A DNA stretch of 64,000 nucleotides from IMG/VR virus record IMGVR_UViG_3300045988_157791, one strand, 5' to 3'. Source of the stretch: a virus (Duplodnaviria; Heunggongvirae; Uroviricota; Caudoviricetes). A program made the position numbers and the translations under genes. This document shows, piece after piece, positions 12,817-21,681 of the stretch; positions within the stretch are counted from its first letter, which is position 1; every line of letters starts with the position of its first letter. A model generated the notes under the pieces. That model did no database searches and was not told the origin of the DNA. It was given only the letters and a program-made list of their open reading frames with translations.

Positions 12817-15800
12817 TCAGTTACTTGTTGCCCCAACAGTACCTGCAAATTTCAGCCATTGACCTGACGGACTTCTATTACTACGGTAGTGATAAACGAG
12901 GATTGCGTTTGTAATCCCACCATAGTCAGCTTTGTGTGACGTCGTTAAACGAATTGTATAATCACCGTTAGGTAGATTAAAAACTTCGATTATAGATTCT
13001 GCTAATTCTACAGCACCAAATCCCGTTATATTGTTGATACTGCCAGCATTGAATCCCATAGCATCGCCAAAGCCAATCCAATAACTTTTGCTAAACGCCC
13101 CATTTGATTTTAGGTGGCTAATGAATGCGGACAAGCTCATGCCCATATCCCCACCTGAAACAGAGGAAGTTCGCACAGTCATACTTGGAAGAGCACTGCT
13201 CTTCACATAGGAACTTAGAAGGTTTGTTACCTCTGTTTTCGTGTAAGCATTAAGGTTAGCCGCAGTCAAAGTTATATCGGCAGAGCCATCAAACGCCACA
13301 CCAGCAATTTTCCTTGCTGTCTGCAATTTTGTGGCGGTTGCGGCATTACCAGTAGTGTTCTGATTACCAGTTGTATTCACACCAGGGATTGAATCCTTAG
13401 CGGTATATACCTGCGCCCACGCTGACCATGCCGCATCAGTGGTATCTCTTCGGGAGCGAATGAAAACCGGCGCATGTGCACCGCTCGTACCACTCCAGCC
13501 AATAAGCAACTCGCCCTCACCAGCAGCACTCGCACCTTTCATGTGCAATACGTTGCCATACGTGGTCGGGTAGCTATTGTTGTACGCCTCATACATTTGA
13601 ATGCCAGCAGTGCCTTGAGTAGAGCCGCTTAACGCCGTAACTCGGCCACGAGATACCAATGTATTAATATTGATATCGCCTGAACCATCAAACTTAACAC
13701 CATTGATGTTTCTCGCTGTTTGCAACTTCGTAGCTGTTGAAGCATTACCGTTCAAACTACCATTTACGCCACCAGTCACATTTAGTCCATTACCAATTGA
13801 TACAGCACCGCTGGTATTATTAATTGTAATAGGTCGCAAACCGTTCCATGAACCTAATGTGTCTCCTGATGCTGTTAGCATGAAATATGTGTTCGATCCA
13901 TCATTACGGATAAAGAACCCAAAGCTACCGTAAGCAATGCGGAAACCATTTGCATATTTTGAAATGATCTCGCCAGAAGATGTCAAACCTCCAGATAATG
14001 TACCACCGGTAAGAGGTAATGCACCGACATCAGAGGCTGTTGGTTTGTTTTTCGTGTTATATACTCTTCGCCATCCTGGAGAATAATCTGTGCCATTAAA
14101 TACATAGATAAACTCCGCATTAGTGAGAGCACCGGAAACACTTGTCGTTGTGGCCGTTGTTATGCGGATCGTATAATTATTTGAACTACTACCGTTATTA
14201 AATACTTCTATAACAGCTCCTGCCAATGGAATAACGCCACAACCAGTTTCACTATTTGGTATGGTTGCGCTATTGGCATAGGCCCACGCACATCGAGCAA
14301 TCCATGCCTTTGTGTTAAAGGCTCCATTATTTTGCAATAACGTCACTAACTGGGCTGTTGTTATTGCTCCGCCATTACTTCCTGTAGTTAACCAACCAGT
14401 AGGAGATGCTGGGCAACCTATATTTGCTGGTGACAAGGAAATATTTGCCGAACCGTCAAACGACACCCCATTAATAGTACGCGCAGTCTGCAACTTCGTA
14501 GCAGTAGCCGCATTACCTGTTGTATTCTGATTACCAGTCGTATTAACACCTGGCAAATTAATATTTGCAGTACCATCAAAGCTCACGCCGCCGATAGTTC
14601 TTGCCGTCTGTAGTTTTGTAGCAGTTGCGGCATTACCAGTGGTGTTCTGATTACCCGTAGTGTTTACACCTGGAAGATTAATATTGGCAGAACCGTCGAA
14701 ACCAACTCCACCGATAGTTCTTGCCGTCTGTAATTTCGTTGCTGTAGCAGCATTTCCTGAAAGACTTGAAATAAATGGATGTGAACAGTAATAACCTCGT
14801 CCATTTTTAAAGTCCAAAATTATCTGTGCATTCGTACTTTCTGATAAAGGATCAGTTGCCCCCCACTTATAAGTGGTTTGACCAACTGCATAATCAGCCG
14901 TTGGAACAATCACATTTAATCCTTCCTCAGCAAAAATCTGGATAGGGAATGCTCTTGTCTCAACGTAAAATACACTACACAAATCATCATCTTTTACGCT
15001 TGCGATAATCGAGTGTATAGATCGTTCAACGGTTGAATATATTGAGAAAAAACCAACAGCATATGAACCGCGATCAGACCAACCGCCCGGCATAACAAAA
15101 CCATTAAACTCACAATTATTCATAGCGTATCCGCCAGCTGAGGAATAAGTGGTGATAACCACTCGTGAGGCTAATTCATCTGTGCCACCACCAGTTCGGC
15201 GAAAGACTACAGGATACCACTTACCGCTTACTGCATTTGCAGGAGCAGAGAAAGTGTATTTTCGCATCCCCTTTTTCTTATCCACTTCACCTTTGCTGTA
15301 AACATTAATGTTATTCAGGAAGCGGCCCTTGTCGGGGATATCAGCACCATTCTGATCCTTCTGTAGTCGTTTTTCAGCATTATCATATGCGGTCTTAACT
15401 GCTTTTGGTGTCGCGGCTAAAGATTCACTGGTGCTGTCGACAGCACTGCTAAGTTTCACAACACCTTTGGTGGTAAGGCTTGCGTCTTCCATCGCAACTG
15501 CACCGGCAATCTCTTCAGCACGATCAGCGGCAGCTTCCGCACGGGTCGCAGCGGATTCAGCAGCAGTTTTGCTCTGAGATGCAGCTGTCGCACTGCCTGC
15601 CGCCTCTGTTGCCTTCGTGGATGCCGTTGAAGCACTGCTCTTCGCTGCTGATGCCTGCTTGGTCGCCTCATCTTTTGAAGCGGATGCTGAGGTGGCTGAT
15701 GCAGACGCAGAACTTGCAGATTCAGCAGCTGCCGCCTTAGAGGAAGCAGCATTGTCTTCTGAGGTCTTTGCATTTGTTTCAGAGGTTTTTGCTGCCGATG

Positions 15801-16947: not shown

Positions 16948-19900
16948 TCACAGAAGGCCAATTCTCACTCGGAGGACGTTGTTATCGTCATAAACGTCAA
17001 TCCGCTGACCATTTATGACCAATCGCCCATTGCCGCCGCTATTACCGTTAATCTCAAGCGTTCCATTTTTGCCGAACCGCCATCCAGATCTACCGCTAAC
17101 AAAATTGGTAGATTGCAGATCGCCTACTTTTGCATTGGTGATTGTGCCATCCTTGATATACGCACCATTCATATAGGCGATACTGTTTTCGATAACAAAT
17201 GGCGTGGTGATCTTCCCGTTAACAGAGTTGACCAAACCAAATCTGTCCGCCTGAACCAAAAACTGAGATAGCCCAGTGGTGTCAATACCAAGCGCAATAC
17301 CGGCAACATACTTCTGCCCTCCGCTCGTTGAAGTCTCCATTTTCAACGTCCACGCGGTTGATACTTTTTTGTTGGTATCAGCAATAGCTGTTGCCTGCTG
17401 TTGAATTGTCGCGGTATTTCCATCCACCTCTGCTTTCAGAGTATCGATTCGCCCACTCAGAGCATTATCTGCCTGCGTTCTCGCTGTCGTTTCAGTTGTG
17501 ACCGCCGCAGAAATGTTGGCTGCTGTTTGAGACTCTAAGTTTGTGATTTGAGTCGCCAATGCAGCATCTTGCTCTGTACGCGTTTTCGTTTCGGTTGCTA
17601 CAGCCGCTTTAATATCCTCTTTGTATTGAGAGGTCAGCTTGGTGATCTGAGACGACAACGCCGAGTCAGCATCAGTTCGAGCCTGCGTTTCAACTGCAAC
17701 GGCCGCACTAATATCTTTCGCTGTCTGTGCTTTTAAACTTGAAACCTCTTTTGTTAAAGCGGTATCACCATCTGCACGAGCCGTTGTTTCTCTGGCAAGA
17801 GACGCCTCGAGATCATTAGCTTTTGCTGTAAGAGACGTAATCTGGGTAGACAATGCACTATCGGCATCAGTCCTTGCTTTTGTCTCTACAGCAACCGCTG
17901 CGGCAATATCAGTTCCGGTTTGTGCTCGCAGGCTGTTAATTTCTCGTGAGAGCGCCTGGTCAGCACTTGCTCTGGCCTCCTGCTCCTGAGTGATGGCCGC
18001 GGATATATCACCGTCAACCTTTGACTGAAGCTGGTTTATTTGTTTGGCTAACGCAGAGTCCCCGCTTGCTCGGGCCTCCTGCTCACTACGTATTGCAGCA
18101 GAAATATCATCATCAACCTTTGCCTGAAGTTGGGTGATCTGTCTTGCCAGAGCCGAATCTTCCGTTGCTCGGGCTTCTTGCTCTTCCTTAATAGCTGCGA
18201 CGATATCGTTGCTTACTTTCGACTCAAGCTGAGTGATCTGTGTCGTCAGAGCTTCATCGGCAGATGTACGAGCCTCCTGCTCTGTACTAATCGCCGCGCT
18301 GATATCTCCTTCAAACTTAGATTGCAGCTGAGTGACACGCTTTGCCAACGCTTCATCGCCATCGGCACGAGCGGTGGACTCTTCCAGAATACTGGCCTTA
18401 ATGTCTTCGCCAATTTCTACGCGAATTTCCTCAACCTTCGTGGCCATTGCAGACATATCATCAGCAAAGGTTTTCTGTGTTGTTGCGATCTTCGCGTTAT
18501 TGACCATCTGCTTGTGCTGGTCTTCATCTTGACGAAGAGCCAGGTCAATATTTGTTTTGGCTAACGCCTCAATGTTCGTAGTCAGTTCTGCACTGGCACG
18601 ATCGACCTCTGCAACCGTCTTTTTCATTTCTTCAACGGCAGCGGAGCTTTCCTCTACCGTTGACTGCAACACTTCCAGTTGTTTAGCGTTTGCAGCATCG
18701 CCTTCAACACGAGCCTCGCTTTCCTTAGCAATAAGAGCCGCCGCTTCATCTCTTGCAGCCTTTATTGCCTCGACTGTATTAGCGAGAGCTTTATCGTGTT
18801 CAGATACGGTGTTTTCGATTTCAACAATTGCAGCATCAGTAGCATCAATTTTTTCAAACGCTTCATTGACCTTGTCGATCGTTGCCGAAACCTCACCTTT
18901 AAGCTCGGTTTGTGCGTTCTCCAAAGCATCGCTACGCTCGTTGAATTTTATTTCAAAATCCGCGAGGTTATCGCTGAACTGCTTATCTAATTCAGCTATA
19001 TCTTCCTTAACGTCGTTTACCGCCCCCTCCAAAGATTCGACGCTCTGGTTGATATGCTCATTTAACTCGTCAACTGCTTCTTGAGAGGCTTTGCTGTTGA
19101 TGTCCTCAAGCAGAGCCTGACCAAGCTCGGAAGATGTAATTTTGCCAGTCAGGAACGACAGTACATCGCGAGTTGTCGCCTCTGTACCCAAGTTTGAGTT
19201 CGGAGGACTTAACATACCTCGCTTGTTCGATGCTCGAACCCAGTAATACCACGTTTCGCTATCCCCAAGACCAGCATGTGTAAAGGTGGTGCTTGCAGAC
19301 TCTGCGATCAGTTTCGCCGTATCCAGATTGTTGGTCTGGGATGCGTAAACATTAATGTGATCAAGGTCTACCGAATCTGGATTAACCCAATTCAGTATCA
19401 CATTACGATAGTCTCCAACGGCCGTTAATGACGTTGGGGAATCCGGCGGTGTCATTGTGCCCAACACCTGATAAACGGTACTGATAATCTCTGTTTTTTT
19501 ACCGTTGAATGAAACCGCATACAGCTGGAAGTCGTAGCGTCCATTCTCCGCGACATTAACGATTTCGTATTGCTCTTCGGTTACACGCGCCGATTGCCAG
19601 TTCGATACATTGTTTTCATCAGAACGTCGCCAACTGATCCAATACTCTGGAGATTTCCCTTCCCATGTTGCAGTCAGTTTTACTGACAGGTTGCCCGGGC
19701 TTGAGAGATAAGTCCCTTCAGTGATTTGCAGATTAGATGGCTTGGAGTAAGTCGGGTCCAATACCGTCGTATTTTGCGGGATAAGCGTTGCACCATTGTC
19801 GATCGCCTCATATTTAGACGGATTGTTCTCAACAGCGGTGATGTCAAAGCTACCCGGCGTTTCCCCCTGCGCGATGTTAACGATGCGAACGCGCATAGGT

Positions 19901-21681
19901 TCGAGGTCTGGTTCTGTAATAGTCCAGACGCCGTTCAAAACAGGCGTTTCAGCCGAAGACAGGGCTTTTGAAAACGTAACTTTTGTTATATTTTCGCCAG
20001 TTTCAAGAACATCGCGTTCAACGATTTTGCCTTCCTGATTCAGTATTCGAATAAAGCAGCCGCCTTTGGCTAACGACACAGGCGCATCGAGTGTGACGCT
20101 GTTTTTGGTAAACGCCACAATTCGACCTGAGTTACGTTTGCCTGCGCGATATTTGTTCTGAATCAGAACGGTTTCACCAGGCATCAGAAATGACGCGTCT
20201 AAGCCGGCAGTAAATGTAATTACATCCGACTCCATTCTGGCGGTATATAAAAGCCACAAACCAACTCGGTGAGCCTGCCCTCGGCTTGTACAGCCAAATG
20301 CTACGACTTCTGTCTTACGCTCACCATAACGGCGCATTGCGTCCTGATCTTCAACGTACTCGATGTTTTGCTTATACCCGTCCTCCTTGTTGTTGTAGGT
20401 TACGAGCGCAACGGATGGGCGATCTTTACGCGCAGAACCTTTATAGGTAAACAATCCATCTTTGACGTTAGAGTTGGTAAACATCATTACCGGATCTGAT
20501 GGGCTATCCTGCATGATGTTAACCATCCCACCAGCCCAAAACACCATGCCGCGGAATGCTCCAGCAATATCCTGAATTAGTCGGTATGCGTCCTGTCGAC
20601 TGGTGATCTGCGTATTGATTGCAAAGCGTTTCTCTTTGCCACCAAAGCCATCATCGACCTCTTCGTCACAATATCGACCAATCTGGTACAACTGGCCAAG
20701 GTCAATCATAGATTCCGACACATACTGACCAAGGCCATATCGAGCATTGGTCAGCAAATCAAAGAGAATCCACGCGGGGTTCGAAGAAGACAACAGCTTA
20801 AAAGTGCCATCCCATACCCCAGCGTAAGTGTTACTGGACTCGTTATAGTTTGAAGGTACTCGAATTTTTAGGCCACGCACCAGATAAGAGCGAGATGGCA
20901 TGGTGCTGCCGAATTGCTCAGAGTTTACCTTCAATCCAACTAAAACAGAGTTTGGATAGTTCATCGGTGTATCGACAATTTCCCCGATTGAATCCACCCA
21001 TGTATCGTTATAGAGATACTGGCTACTGTTATCATCGGTAATACGGACCACACGAACCTTGTATGCTCGTCCAGGCTTAGGCAGCTTCAGCTCATAGCTA
21101 CGGTAATAAACGCCGGTCTTCTTTGCTGTTAGCTTAATGCCAACGCTTTTTTCACCTTCAGCGACCACATCTACAAATGTTGAGTCGCCATTTGCTATCT
21201 GGAACTTGTACTCAACAGTCGTACCGTTCGTGTCACCAGTTTTTTTATCTATGCTTCGCAAAGAAGGAAACTTCATGATGACACGAACCCGATCAGCTTC
21301 ATCGTTATCGATTGAAACCGTTACATAATGTGTTTTTTTTAACTGGATATTGACGGATTTAGGCGTTTCAACGAAATCAAAGCCAGACATTGGAGTCTGG
21401 TCTTGTGAACCGTCGCGAAAATCCCATGTGATTCCGCTGAAGTTGGAGGAACCGTCTTCATTTACAATCGGCAGATCGTCGATAAAAATAGATCTTGCGC
21501 CATTTACTAAGCCGCCAATTACCCCTTCCCCAAGAAGATCGAGGATAGCGGCCATTGCACGAGAATTTACGGTATCGTCGGCTTCAACCGGTGTACGGCT
21601 GGAGCTTTTGCTGCTTTTTTTACCCCCCGCACCGGCAATAAACAGCGGTAGCTTTTTCTTCTTGAACTGTTCCATGTTCAA
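16948..21681 (-). CDS. host-specificity / central tail tip protein (lambda J-like, 1577 aa)
   Basis: Position after I/K/L/M-like genes; large internal array of 33-aa repeats DISAAI-EQEAR--AD-AL--QITQL-SKV (about 10 copies). Confidence 0.75.
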   Translation of the reverse strand: MNMEQFKKKKLPLFIAGAGGKKSSKSSSRTPVEADDTVNSRAMAAILDLLGEGVIGGLVNGARSIFIDDLPIVNEDGSSNFSGITWDFRDGSQDQTPMSGFDFVETPKSVNIQLKKTHYVTVSIDNDEADRVRVIMKFPSLRSIDKKTGDTNGTTVEYKFQIANGDSTFVDVVAEGEKSVGIKLTAKKTGVYYRSYELKLPKPGRAYKVRVVRITDDNSSQYLYNDTWVDSIGEIVDTPMNYPNSVLVGLKVNSEQFGSTMPSRSYLVRGLKIRVPSNYNESSNTYAGVWDGTFKLLSSSNPAWILFDLLTNARYGLGQYVSESMIDLGQLYQIGRYCDEEVDDGFGGKEKRFAINTQITSRQDAYRLIQDIAGAFRGMVFWAGGMVNIMQDSPSDPVMMFTNSNVKDGLFTYKGSARKDRPSVALVTYNNKEDGYKQNIEYVEDQDAMRRYGERKTEVVAFGCTSRGQAHRVGLWLLYTARMESDVITFTAGLDASFLMPGETVLIQNKYRAGKRNSGRIVAFTKNSVTLDAPVSLAKGGCFIRILNQEGKIVERDVLETGENITKVTFSKALSSAETPVLNGVWTITEPDLEPMRVRIVNIAQGETPGSFDITAVENNPSKYEAIDNGATLIPQNTTVLDPTYSKPSNLQITEGTYLSSPGNLSVKLTATWEGKSPEYWISWRRSDENNVSNWQSARVTEEQYEIVNVAENGRYDFQLYAVSFNGKKTEIISTVYQVLGTMTPPDSPTSLTAVGDYRNVILNWVNPDSVDLDHINVYASQTNNLDTAKLIAESASTTFTHAGLGDSETWYYWVRASNKRGMLSPPNSNLGTEATTRDVLSFLTGKITSSELGQALLEDINSKASQEAVDELNEHINQSVESLEGAVNDVKEDIAELDKQFSDNLADFEIKFNERSDALENAQTELKGEVSATIDKVNEAFEKIDATDAAIVEIENTVSEHDKALANTVEAIKAARDEAAALIAKESEARVEGDAANAKQLEVLQSTVEESSAAVEEMKKTVAEVDRASAELTTNIEALAKTNIDLALRQDEDQHKQMVNNAKIATTQKTFADDMSAMATKVEEIRVEIGEDIKASILEESTARADGDEALAKRVTQLQSKFEGDISAAISTEQEARTSADEALTTQITQLESKVSNDIVAAIKEEQEARATEDSALARQITQLQAKVDDDISAAIRSEQEARASGDSALAKQINQLQSKVDGDISAAITQEQEARASADQALSREINSLRAQTGTDIAAAVAVETKARTDADSALSTQITSLTAKANDLEASLARETTARADGDTALTKEVSSLKAQTAKDISAAVAVETQARTDADSALSSQITKLTSQYKEDIKAAVATETKTRTEQDAALATQITNLESQTAANISAAVTTETTARTQADNALSGRIDTLKAEVDGNTATIQQQATAIADTNKKVSTAWTLKMETSTSGGQKYVAGIALGIDTTGLSQFLVQADRFGLVNSVNGKITTPFVIENSIAYMNGAYIKDGTITNAKVGDLQSTNFVSGRSGWRFGKNGTLEINGNSGGNGRLVINGQRIDVYDDNNVLRVRIGLL

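Follow-up and report, generated by a model that had tools for sequence, protein, structure and literature searches.

In the F7 pyocin, the shaft of the central fibre refolds from helix to sheet during membrane puncture, with the tip opened and the tape measure protein expelled (He et al. 2026, preprint; PMC12874032). Each strand of this shaft carries the motif SxSxxMxxLxS, whose orientation follows that of the strand and whose small-residue positions are solvent-exposed in the coiled coil (PMC12874032). Substitution of Gln at small 'corner' residues abolishes killing and leaves assembly unaffected, and in AlphaFold predictions 21 of 24 central fibre proteins from phages undergo the same switch (PMC12874032). 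The F2 pyocin fibre has a three-stranded 'alpha-helical shaft' with side fibres attached at an acidic kink (PMC13455828; PDB 25vf), and in F2 and F7 alike three side-fibre trimers bind this kink, D950-D961/G955, in the coiled coil (two pyocin papers, including PMC13455828). In phage T1, no structure was resolved for the C-terminal 350 residues of gp33, and a fibre ~37 nm long is predicted for them (PMC11945409; PDB 9l9p). Here we describe a related protein, the J-like central tail fibre protein encoded in a 64,000-nucleotide (nt) stretch of viral DNA, IMG/VR record IMGVR_UViG_3300045988_157791 (the window). This protein carries a tandem array of ten units of 33 or 32 amino acids (aa), which on balance we judge to be the distal segment of a length-variable, trimeric alpha-helical shaft and a probable fold-switch spring.

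On homology, the product is a lambda-J-like central tail fibre or tail tip protein. It matches the PHROG family 'central tail fiber J' (E = 0) and, over aa 25-960, the NCBIfam model lambda_TipJ (E = 3e-157, under the curated cut-off of that model), and phmmer against the PDB pairs it with 8iyk_J (E = 3.6e-124), 25vf_A and 9l9p_S across aa 20-868. Pfam places FNIII-A_GpJ at aa 104-238, Phage-tail_3 at 360-523, fn3 at 647-730 and Phage_Tail_Tip at 1425-1559, and has no match on J between about aa 735 and 1393. Lambda gpJ (PDB 8iyk, 8xcj) has a homologous hub, FNIII domains and beta-prism central straight fibre, but is without a helical shaft: residues 3-837 of 8iyk_J align to aa 21-863 and residues 839-971 to aa 1420-1549, so that residues 837 and 839 flank the insertion point. 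Relative to lambda J (1132 aa), about 556 residues are thus inserted at the FNIII/beta-prism junction: first the upstream helix, then the conserved linker, then the array (Table 1), to which much of the extra length is due. An earlier note on this DNA, written from its letters and open reading frames, had found J several hundred residues longer than is typical, and the comparison with lambda agrees and places the excess at this one point. Lambda gpJ also has a separate C-terminal LamB-binding domain, which is missing from J here.

Read in 33-residue steps, the translation of the array gives ten tandem units, nine of 33 aa and one of 32 aa, with the consensus DISAAIxxETxARTxADxALxxQITxLxSKxxx. 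A4, E9, R13, D17, A19, L20 and L27 are invariant in all ten. Between units, protein identity is 28-73% (mean 48%) and DNA identity 39-67% (mean 52%), and the longest exact word in common is 12 nt. On the array DNA, Tandem Repeats Finder recovered only 2.2 copies at 76% match, and a second repeat search recovered four copies at 63-71%. The array is therefore a set of old, diverged duplications. The earlier note's description of about ten consecutive 33-residue repeats in a 1577-aa J-like protein was correct, coordinates included, apart from the one shorter unit, while its statement that near-identical DNA repeats mirror them does not hold at these identities. Each unit matches a profile of the units at E values of 1e-14 to 1e-19, a result that is partly circular, the profile having been made from those same ten units. 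No curated family covers the unit, as both Pfam (E <= 1) and NCBIfam are empty over aa 935-1421.

AlphaFold2 (AF2) was run on the monomer only, over aa 1225-1577, which comprise units 5-10 and the tip, at alignment depths of 1 and 27 sequences. From the single sequence it returned one unbroken helix over aa 1226-1443 with a predicted local distance difference test score (pLDDT) above 90; with 27 sequences, the helix reached aa 1408 and beta strands began at aa 1414. The helix predicted for the modelled units is in line with the coiled-coil array that the earlier note had proposed. Foldseek matched the beta part to the lambda gpJ fibre (8xcj/8xci; 8xcj_F, E = 1.5e-7) and to the SU10 tip fibre 7z4b_EA. 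Proline is absent from aa 930-1421. The array has a hydrophobic period of 3.65 residues, close to 33/9, and the upstream helix one of 3.54. The rise per residue of a coiled coil is ~0.148 nm; if coiled coil, the 329 residues of the array would span ~49 nm and the whole helical region ~79 nm.

The distal part of J is homologous to the shafts of the F2 pyocin and T1. Residues 910-1193 of the F2 fibre 25vf_A align to aa 1271-1549 (E = 5e-25; phmmer), and units 9-10 pair with F2 residues 1004-1063, E1039 and R1043 included. T1 gp33 (9l9p_S), a lambda-like tip protein with a homologous tip domain, aligns to the distal part (E = 1e-29). Its repeats are likewise 33 residues long and of the same type (DDIQASLTDIREVIATETEALSREIDQLKAQIG), but it differs from J here in having about three units in a protein of 1172 aa. 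With the F2/F7 fibres, J shares a J-like hub, a helical shaft between FNIII domains and C-terminal beta-prism that is trimeric in the pyocins and presumably trimeric here, the alternating SxLxxMxxSxS / SxSxxMxxLxS motif, a Glu-Arg i/i+4 pair and an acidic stretch upstream of the motif region. The pyocin fibres, which are tailocin proteins, have about three units of ~32 residues (six motif strands, roughly residues 985-1076) in a 163-residue coil, whereas J, a phage-plasmid virion protein, has ten regular units with a period of 33 residues plus about six upstream motif strands in ~536 helical residues.

The motif described for the F7 shaft is found twice in every unit. In its reversed orientation it occupies unit positions 4-14 in 10/10 units, as A-x-[IVL]-x-x-E-x-x-[AT]-R-[AT], and in its forward orientation positions 19-29, again in 10/10, as A-L-[AST]-x-x-[IV]-x-x-L-x-[AS]; successive motifs are spaced by 18/15 residues, with turns rich in D, G and N between them. 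Six more motif strands lie upstream of the array, at aa 950, 965, 982, 997 and 1014 (15/17-residue spacing, span 950-1024) and at aa 1078. Overall we counted 14 reversed and 18 forward motifs, versus about 4 +/- 2 in composition-preserving shuffles, and a stricter forward pattern occurred 12 times versus 0.9 in shuffles. An alternative placement of the forward motif at positions 12-22 (ARTSADEALTT) was rejected, as it fits only some units and positions 19-29 fit all ten.

We then related these positions to named residues of the F2 fibre, with the F2 numbering derived from the printed phmmer alignment. As a check on this numbering, G955 and D950/951/953/954/961 come out at the very positions given for them in the two pyocin papers. 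One forward motif comprises A985, A987 and A995, which match unit positions 19/21/29; V1010 sits on a small position of the reversed motif and matches position 12; and E1039-R1043 are the M position and the i+4 Arg of the reversed motif, matching positions 9/13. The F2 control residues A998 and A1011 lie off the small positions. Since the named residues map to unit positions in this way, one 32-33-residue unit corresponds to two antiparallel strands. A division of the unit into three equal strands (33 = 3 x 11) was ruled out, because the F2 mapping gives two strands per unit at a spacing of 15-18 residues.

These data can be combined in a model of how the shaft may work. It would connect the FNIII domains of the tail-tip hub to the lambda-like beta-prism tip. 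Each unit of 33 residues would make nine helical turns with a core stripe of I2, I6, E9, R13, D17, L20, I24, L27 and V31, in which E9-R13-D17 may form a buried salt-bridge ladder, and would also encode a latent beta-hairpin, SxLxxMxxSxS (4-14) and SxSxxMxxLxS (19-29) with D/G/N-rich turns between. Before infection, the ten units would stand as a coiled coil of ~49 nm that fixes the reach of the tip. On receptor engagement, the shaft would refold, with the adjacent beta-prism as seed, to a triangular beta-prism of ~20 strands per face and roughly 10 nm. Refolding would draw the tail tip to the cell and contribute to opening it, as seen experimentally in the F7 pyocin, and the reach and the conformational energy in store would then both be set by the number of units. 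We infer fold switching in J, which is experimental in the F7 pyocin, from what was obtained here: how the protein is laid out, its predicted helix, its homology to the shafts of the F pyocins and T1, the fit of the motif to its units, and variation among relatives by whole units. A further step, which we put forward only tentatively, would be to regard the 33-residue unit as a modular 'spring element', coil before infection and beta-hairpin after it, whose copy number tunes the reach and stored energy of the injection trigger of a non-contractile tail.

The number of units differs among relatives. Homologues cluster at lengths of 1575, 1574, 1535, 1509, 1498, 1465, 1426, 1386 and 1353 aa, with 10, 10, 9, 8, 8, 7, 6, 5 and 4 regular units, respectively, and the alignment gaps among the length variants are whole units throughout. 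The J-like protein of SSU5 (SSU5_020) has the same gene, synteny and unit type and a tip that is 96% identical, but has five regular units and 1385 aa, and MCJ8600983.1, a protein from Klebsiella with 46% identity, carries 22 units, each of 33 residues. Comparison of repeat number among related phages, which the earlier note had proposed, thus gives 4-10 units in the E. coli and Salmonella relatives, and 22 in the Klebsiella homologue. Because relatives differ by whole units, it is plausible that the array sets fibre length, the part of the earlier note's suggestion about such arrays that stands. Among plasmids with 95-99% DNA identity over the 3' half of J, 3 of 40 sampled E. coli rows are shorter by exactly 99 nt; in pPEC178_2 unit 4 is cleanly lost, and in strain AH02 a single hybrid stands for units 4 and 5, two independent in-register events. 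Unit number therefore changes, rarely.

Divergence along the protein is concentrated in the shaft. Identity to the E. coli and Salmonella relatives is 89-98% in the hub, 77-94% in the linker, 92-97% in the tip and 65-72% in the array, falling to 46-56% in the upstream helix. The variable part of J is the shaft, not the tip, with the upstream helix most divergent. This pattern is the opposite of the usual one, where the distal receptor-binding end varies most. Megablast matches to PhiR41_1 and CMS-2020a SCU-175 end at about window position 19025. J of the type found in Klebsiella phage pJN2-26 has aa 1-901 in common (82% identical) and then an unrelated distal region, for a total of 4045 aa with zero 33-aa units. 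By these alignments, the hub/fibre junction at aa 885-901 is a module boundary, at which the distal fibre is exchanged as a whole.

The profile of the ten units was searched against a library of 1.84 billion proteins. It matched 1991 cluster representatives at E <= 1e-3, of which 183 reached E <= 1e-30; 20-31 matched stretches were counted in some, and because of this number of matches the unit is no chance pattern. Within the top 150 proteins, the period of the unit is mostly 32 residues, followed by 36, 33 and 39. A J-type hub was found by phmmer in 30 of these 150, and 90 are without hub and without tip; by a separate cut, 59 have the beginning of the tip domain after the array. The idea that ten units are exceptional was ruled out by the proteins with 20-31 matched stretches and by the 22 units of the Klebsiella J homologue.

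Several points weigh against a refolding array. The fold switch is experimental only for the F7 pyocin, and in a preprint (PMC12874032), and in length the array exceeds the part of the F2/F7 shaft that bears the motif (six strands) more than threefold, which makes refolding of the whole array uncertain. Units 5-10 stayed helical at both AF2 depths, and only aa 1409-1443, ~35 residues at the array/tip boundary, went from helix to strand. We had considered that a deeper AF2 alignment might flip the array to beta; no flip occurred in the monomer, a result that is uninformative on the switch, not negative. The Cyrano paper, micrographs included, does not describe J repeats or a long tip fibre (PMC9928086). 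In favour of the switch, across 1597 units from the 150 proteins small residues make up 95-100% at positions 4, 12, 14, 19, 21 and 29, Leu, Ile or Val 98-100% at positions 6 and 27, Glu 99% at position 9, Arg 98% at position 13 and Asp 93% at position 17, though this conservation is partly circular, the units having been picked with the profile made from the array itself. An alternative that we consider possible, if rather doubtful, is a trimeric coiled coil that serves only as a static spacer: it never refolds, holds the tip at a set distance, for example across lipopolysaccharide or capsule, and uses its small residues for helix packing or side-fibre contacts. The helix predicted for units 5-10 at both depths fits it, as does a unit number that runs from 4 to 22 with the frame always kept, as a simple spacer would have it, and lambda and T5 do without such a switch (He et al., discussion; PMC12874032). 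However, a static spacer leaves unexplained both the near-complete conservation of small residues at coil-exposed positions and the D/G/N-rich turns every 15-18 residues, and the homologous segment of F7 does switch (PMC12874032).

Two other roles for the shaft have to be weighed against the fold-switch spring. It might, by analogy with the F2/F7 pyocins, serve above all to dock the side tail fibres encoded downstream, a role that would be compatible with a spring and that we think improbable as the chief function. Side-fibre trimers of F2/F7 bind the acidic kink, and the linker just upstream of the array holds a conserved acidic stretch, RQDEDQH (aa 1050-1056, window 18514-18534), which lies between two motif-bearing helical regions and is a candidate kink and side-fibre docking site; a fibre gene of 1345 aa also directly follows J. 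This candidate site is outside the array, however, and one docking site needs no ten units. The earlier note had instead seen a recombination-prone module for host-range variation, in which gain or loss of units alters host range, and we regard this as unlikely. The in-register deletions of one and two units in close relatives, the hybrid units at their junctions, which point to slippage or unequal crossing-over, and the position of the shaft as the most divergent part of J all speak for such a cassette. Yet because the DNA copies are strongly diverged, at most 67% identical with exact words of no more than 12 nt, the array is not obviously recombination-prone; length differs, by one unit each, in only 3 of the 40 sampled near-identical plasmid rows; and the boundary for exchange at aa 885-901 is outside the array. 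Our search turned up no host-range data, and with a tip beyond the array that is 92-97% conserved across the length variants we found no link to host range. An assembly artefact, with the repeat collapsed or inflated, which the earlier note had raised as the outcome that would undo its observation, has next to no probability: no point in its favour was found, the units are too diverged for assembly collapse, and an array of equal length is present in Cyrano, in CMS-2020a and, among the complete E. coli plasmids with this 3' half (at least 166), in most. Since Cyrano, PLSDB plasmids and independently assembled complete E. coli plasmids all carry the array, an artefact is excluded.

The window is an SSU5-like phage-plasmid. 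Its J gene is 99.2% identical in nucleotide sequence to the 'tail host specificity protein J' gene of Escherichia phage Cyrano (pLF82) and 97.8% identical to that of phage CMS-2020a, has the same length in both, and is related to that of Salmonella phage SSU5. Cyrano is an SSU5-like phage-plasmid of E. coli LF82 with a virion tail of 259 nm (PMC9928086). About 160 PLSDB plasmids encode a J protein at least 95% identical, and the 3' half of J is present in 176 of 5426 complete E. coli genomes, plasmid-borne every time, with at least 80% of that half covered in 166. In NZ_CP124394.1, the IS66-family insertion sequence (IS) ISEc23 lies within array unit 7 of J (equivalent to window position ~17727), and in NZ_CP029421.1 (H121) ISEc52 interrupts the J gene. 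These IS-interrupted J genes suggest phage-plasmids decaying to plain plasmids.

The features of the locus are listed in Table 1. The J reading frame encodes 1577 aa when counted from a TTG start; an ATG at 21675 (window 21675-21681 region), two codons past the TTG, gives 1575 aa, is the start annotated in Cyrano and in the database protein P0001, and is probably the likelier start. The gene order tape measure-M-L-K-I-J-side fibre is annotated in Cyrano, PhiR41_1 and SSU5, and the layout of open reading frames in the window agrees with it. The side tail fibre gene has an in-frame tandem repeat of its own at 14486-14754, with a period of 120 nt (40 aa), 2.2 copies and 79% match. Two antisense open reading frames face the array and linker, at 18130-18564 (+; 144 aa) and 18557-19084 (+; 175 aa); Pfam has no match on either, and they are probably not genes, being taken as by-products of the Ala/Ser/Thr-rich coding strand.

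Table 1. Coordinates of J, its parts and the downstream fibre gene in the window.
Feature	Position	Strand	Basis
J-like central tail fibre / tail tip gene	16948..21681	minus	ORF (open reading frame) list, translation, Pfam, PHROG, NCBIfam lambda_TipJ
Hub and FNIII part, aa 1-885	19027..21681	minus	homologous to lambda J residues 3-837; PDB phmmer
Upstream helical shaft, aa 886-1023	18613..19026	minus	no proline, hydrophobic period 3.54, motif hits
Conserved linker, aa 1024-1092	18406..18612	minus	conserved in alignment of length variants
Ten-unit array, aa 1093-1421	17419..18405	minus	register, identity matrices, alignment
Units 1-5, in order	18307-18405, 18208-18306, 18109-18207, 18010-18108, 17911-18009	minus	
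Units 6-10, in order	17812-17910, 17716-17811 (32 aa), 17617-17715, 17518-17616, 17419-17517	minus	
C-terminal beta-prism 'central straight fibre' tip, aa 1422-1577	16951..17418	minus	Pfam PF09327 (Phage_Tail_Tip), E = 1.4e-41
Side tail fibre gene downstream of J, 1345 aa	12817..16854	minus	ORF list; Cyrano CYRAN_21 = 'tail fiber protein, P1 S homolog'

The J protein itself is already public, labelled only 'phage tail protein' or 'TipJ family'. Descriptions of J-like coiled-coil shafts and of the fold switch in them date from 2025-2026 onward, and J here is a longer example, not a new kind. In the literature examined, three things appear to be undescribed: the shaft as a 32-33-residue two-strand unit, the clean tenfold array in a common E. 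coli phage-plasmid, and the 4-22-unit series on a constant hub and tip. The name 'SSU5' is absent from the main text of He et al. (PMC12874032). As neither Pfam nor NCBIfam models the unit, annotation pipelines miss it, yet a simple profile finds ~2000 protein clusters.

It is an open question how non-contractile tails obtain the energy for opening their tip and for breaching the outer membrane; the F7 pyocin switch, known from one system, is a recent answer. In J, the motif-bearing unit forms a clean tandem array, and the E. coli phage-plasmid family that carries it is very common, with this allele of the J 3' half in 176 of the 5426 complete genomes; the natural variation in copy number on a constant hub and tip is a genetically tractable series for testing the switch in real phages, for reach or for force. 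If the spring reading is true, the alleles of 4, 5, 6, 7, 8, 9, 10 and 22 units would form an allelic series in which spring length could be tested against envelope thickness and infection efficiency.

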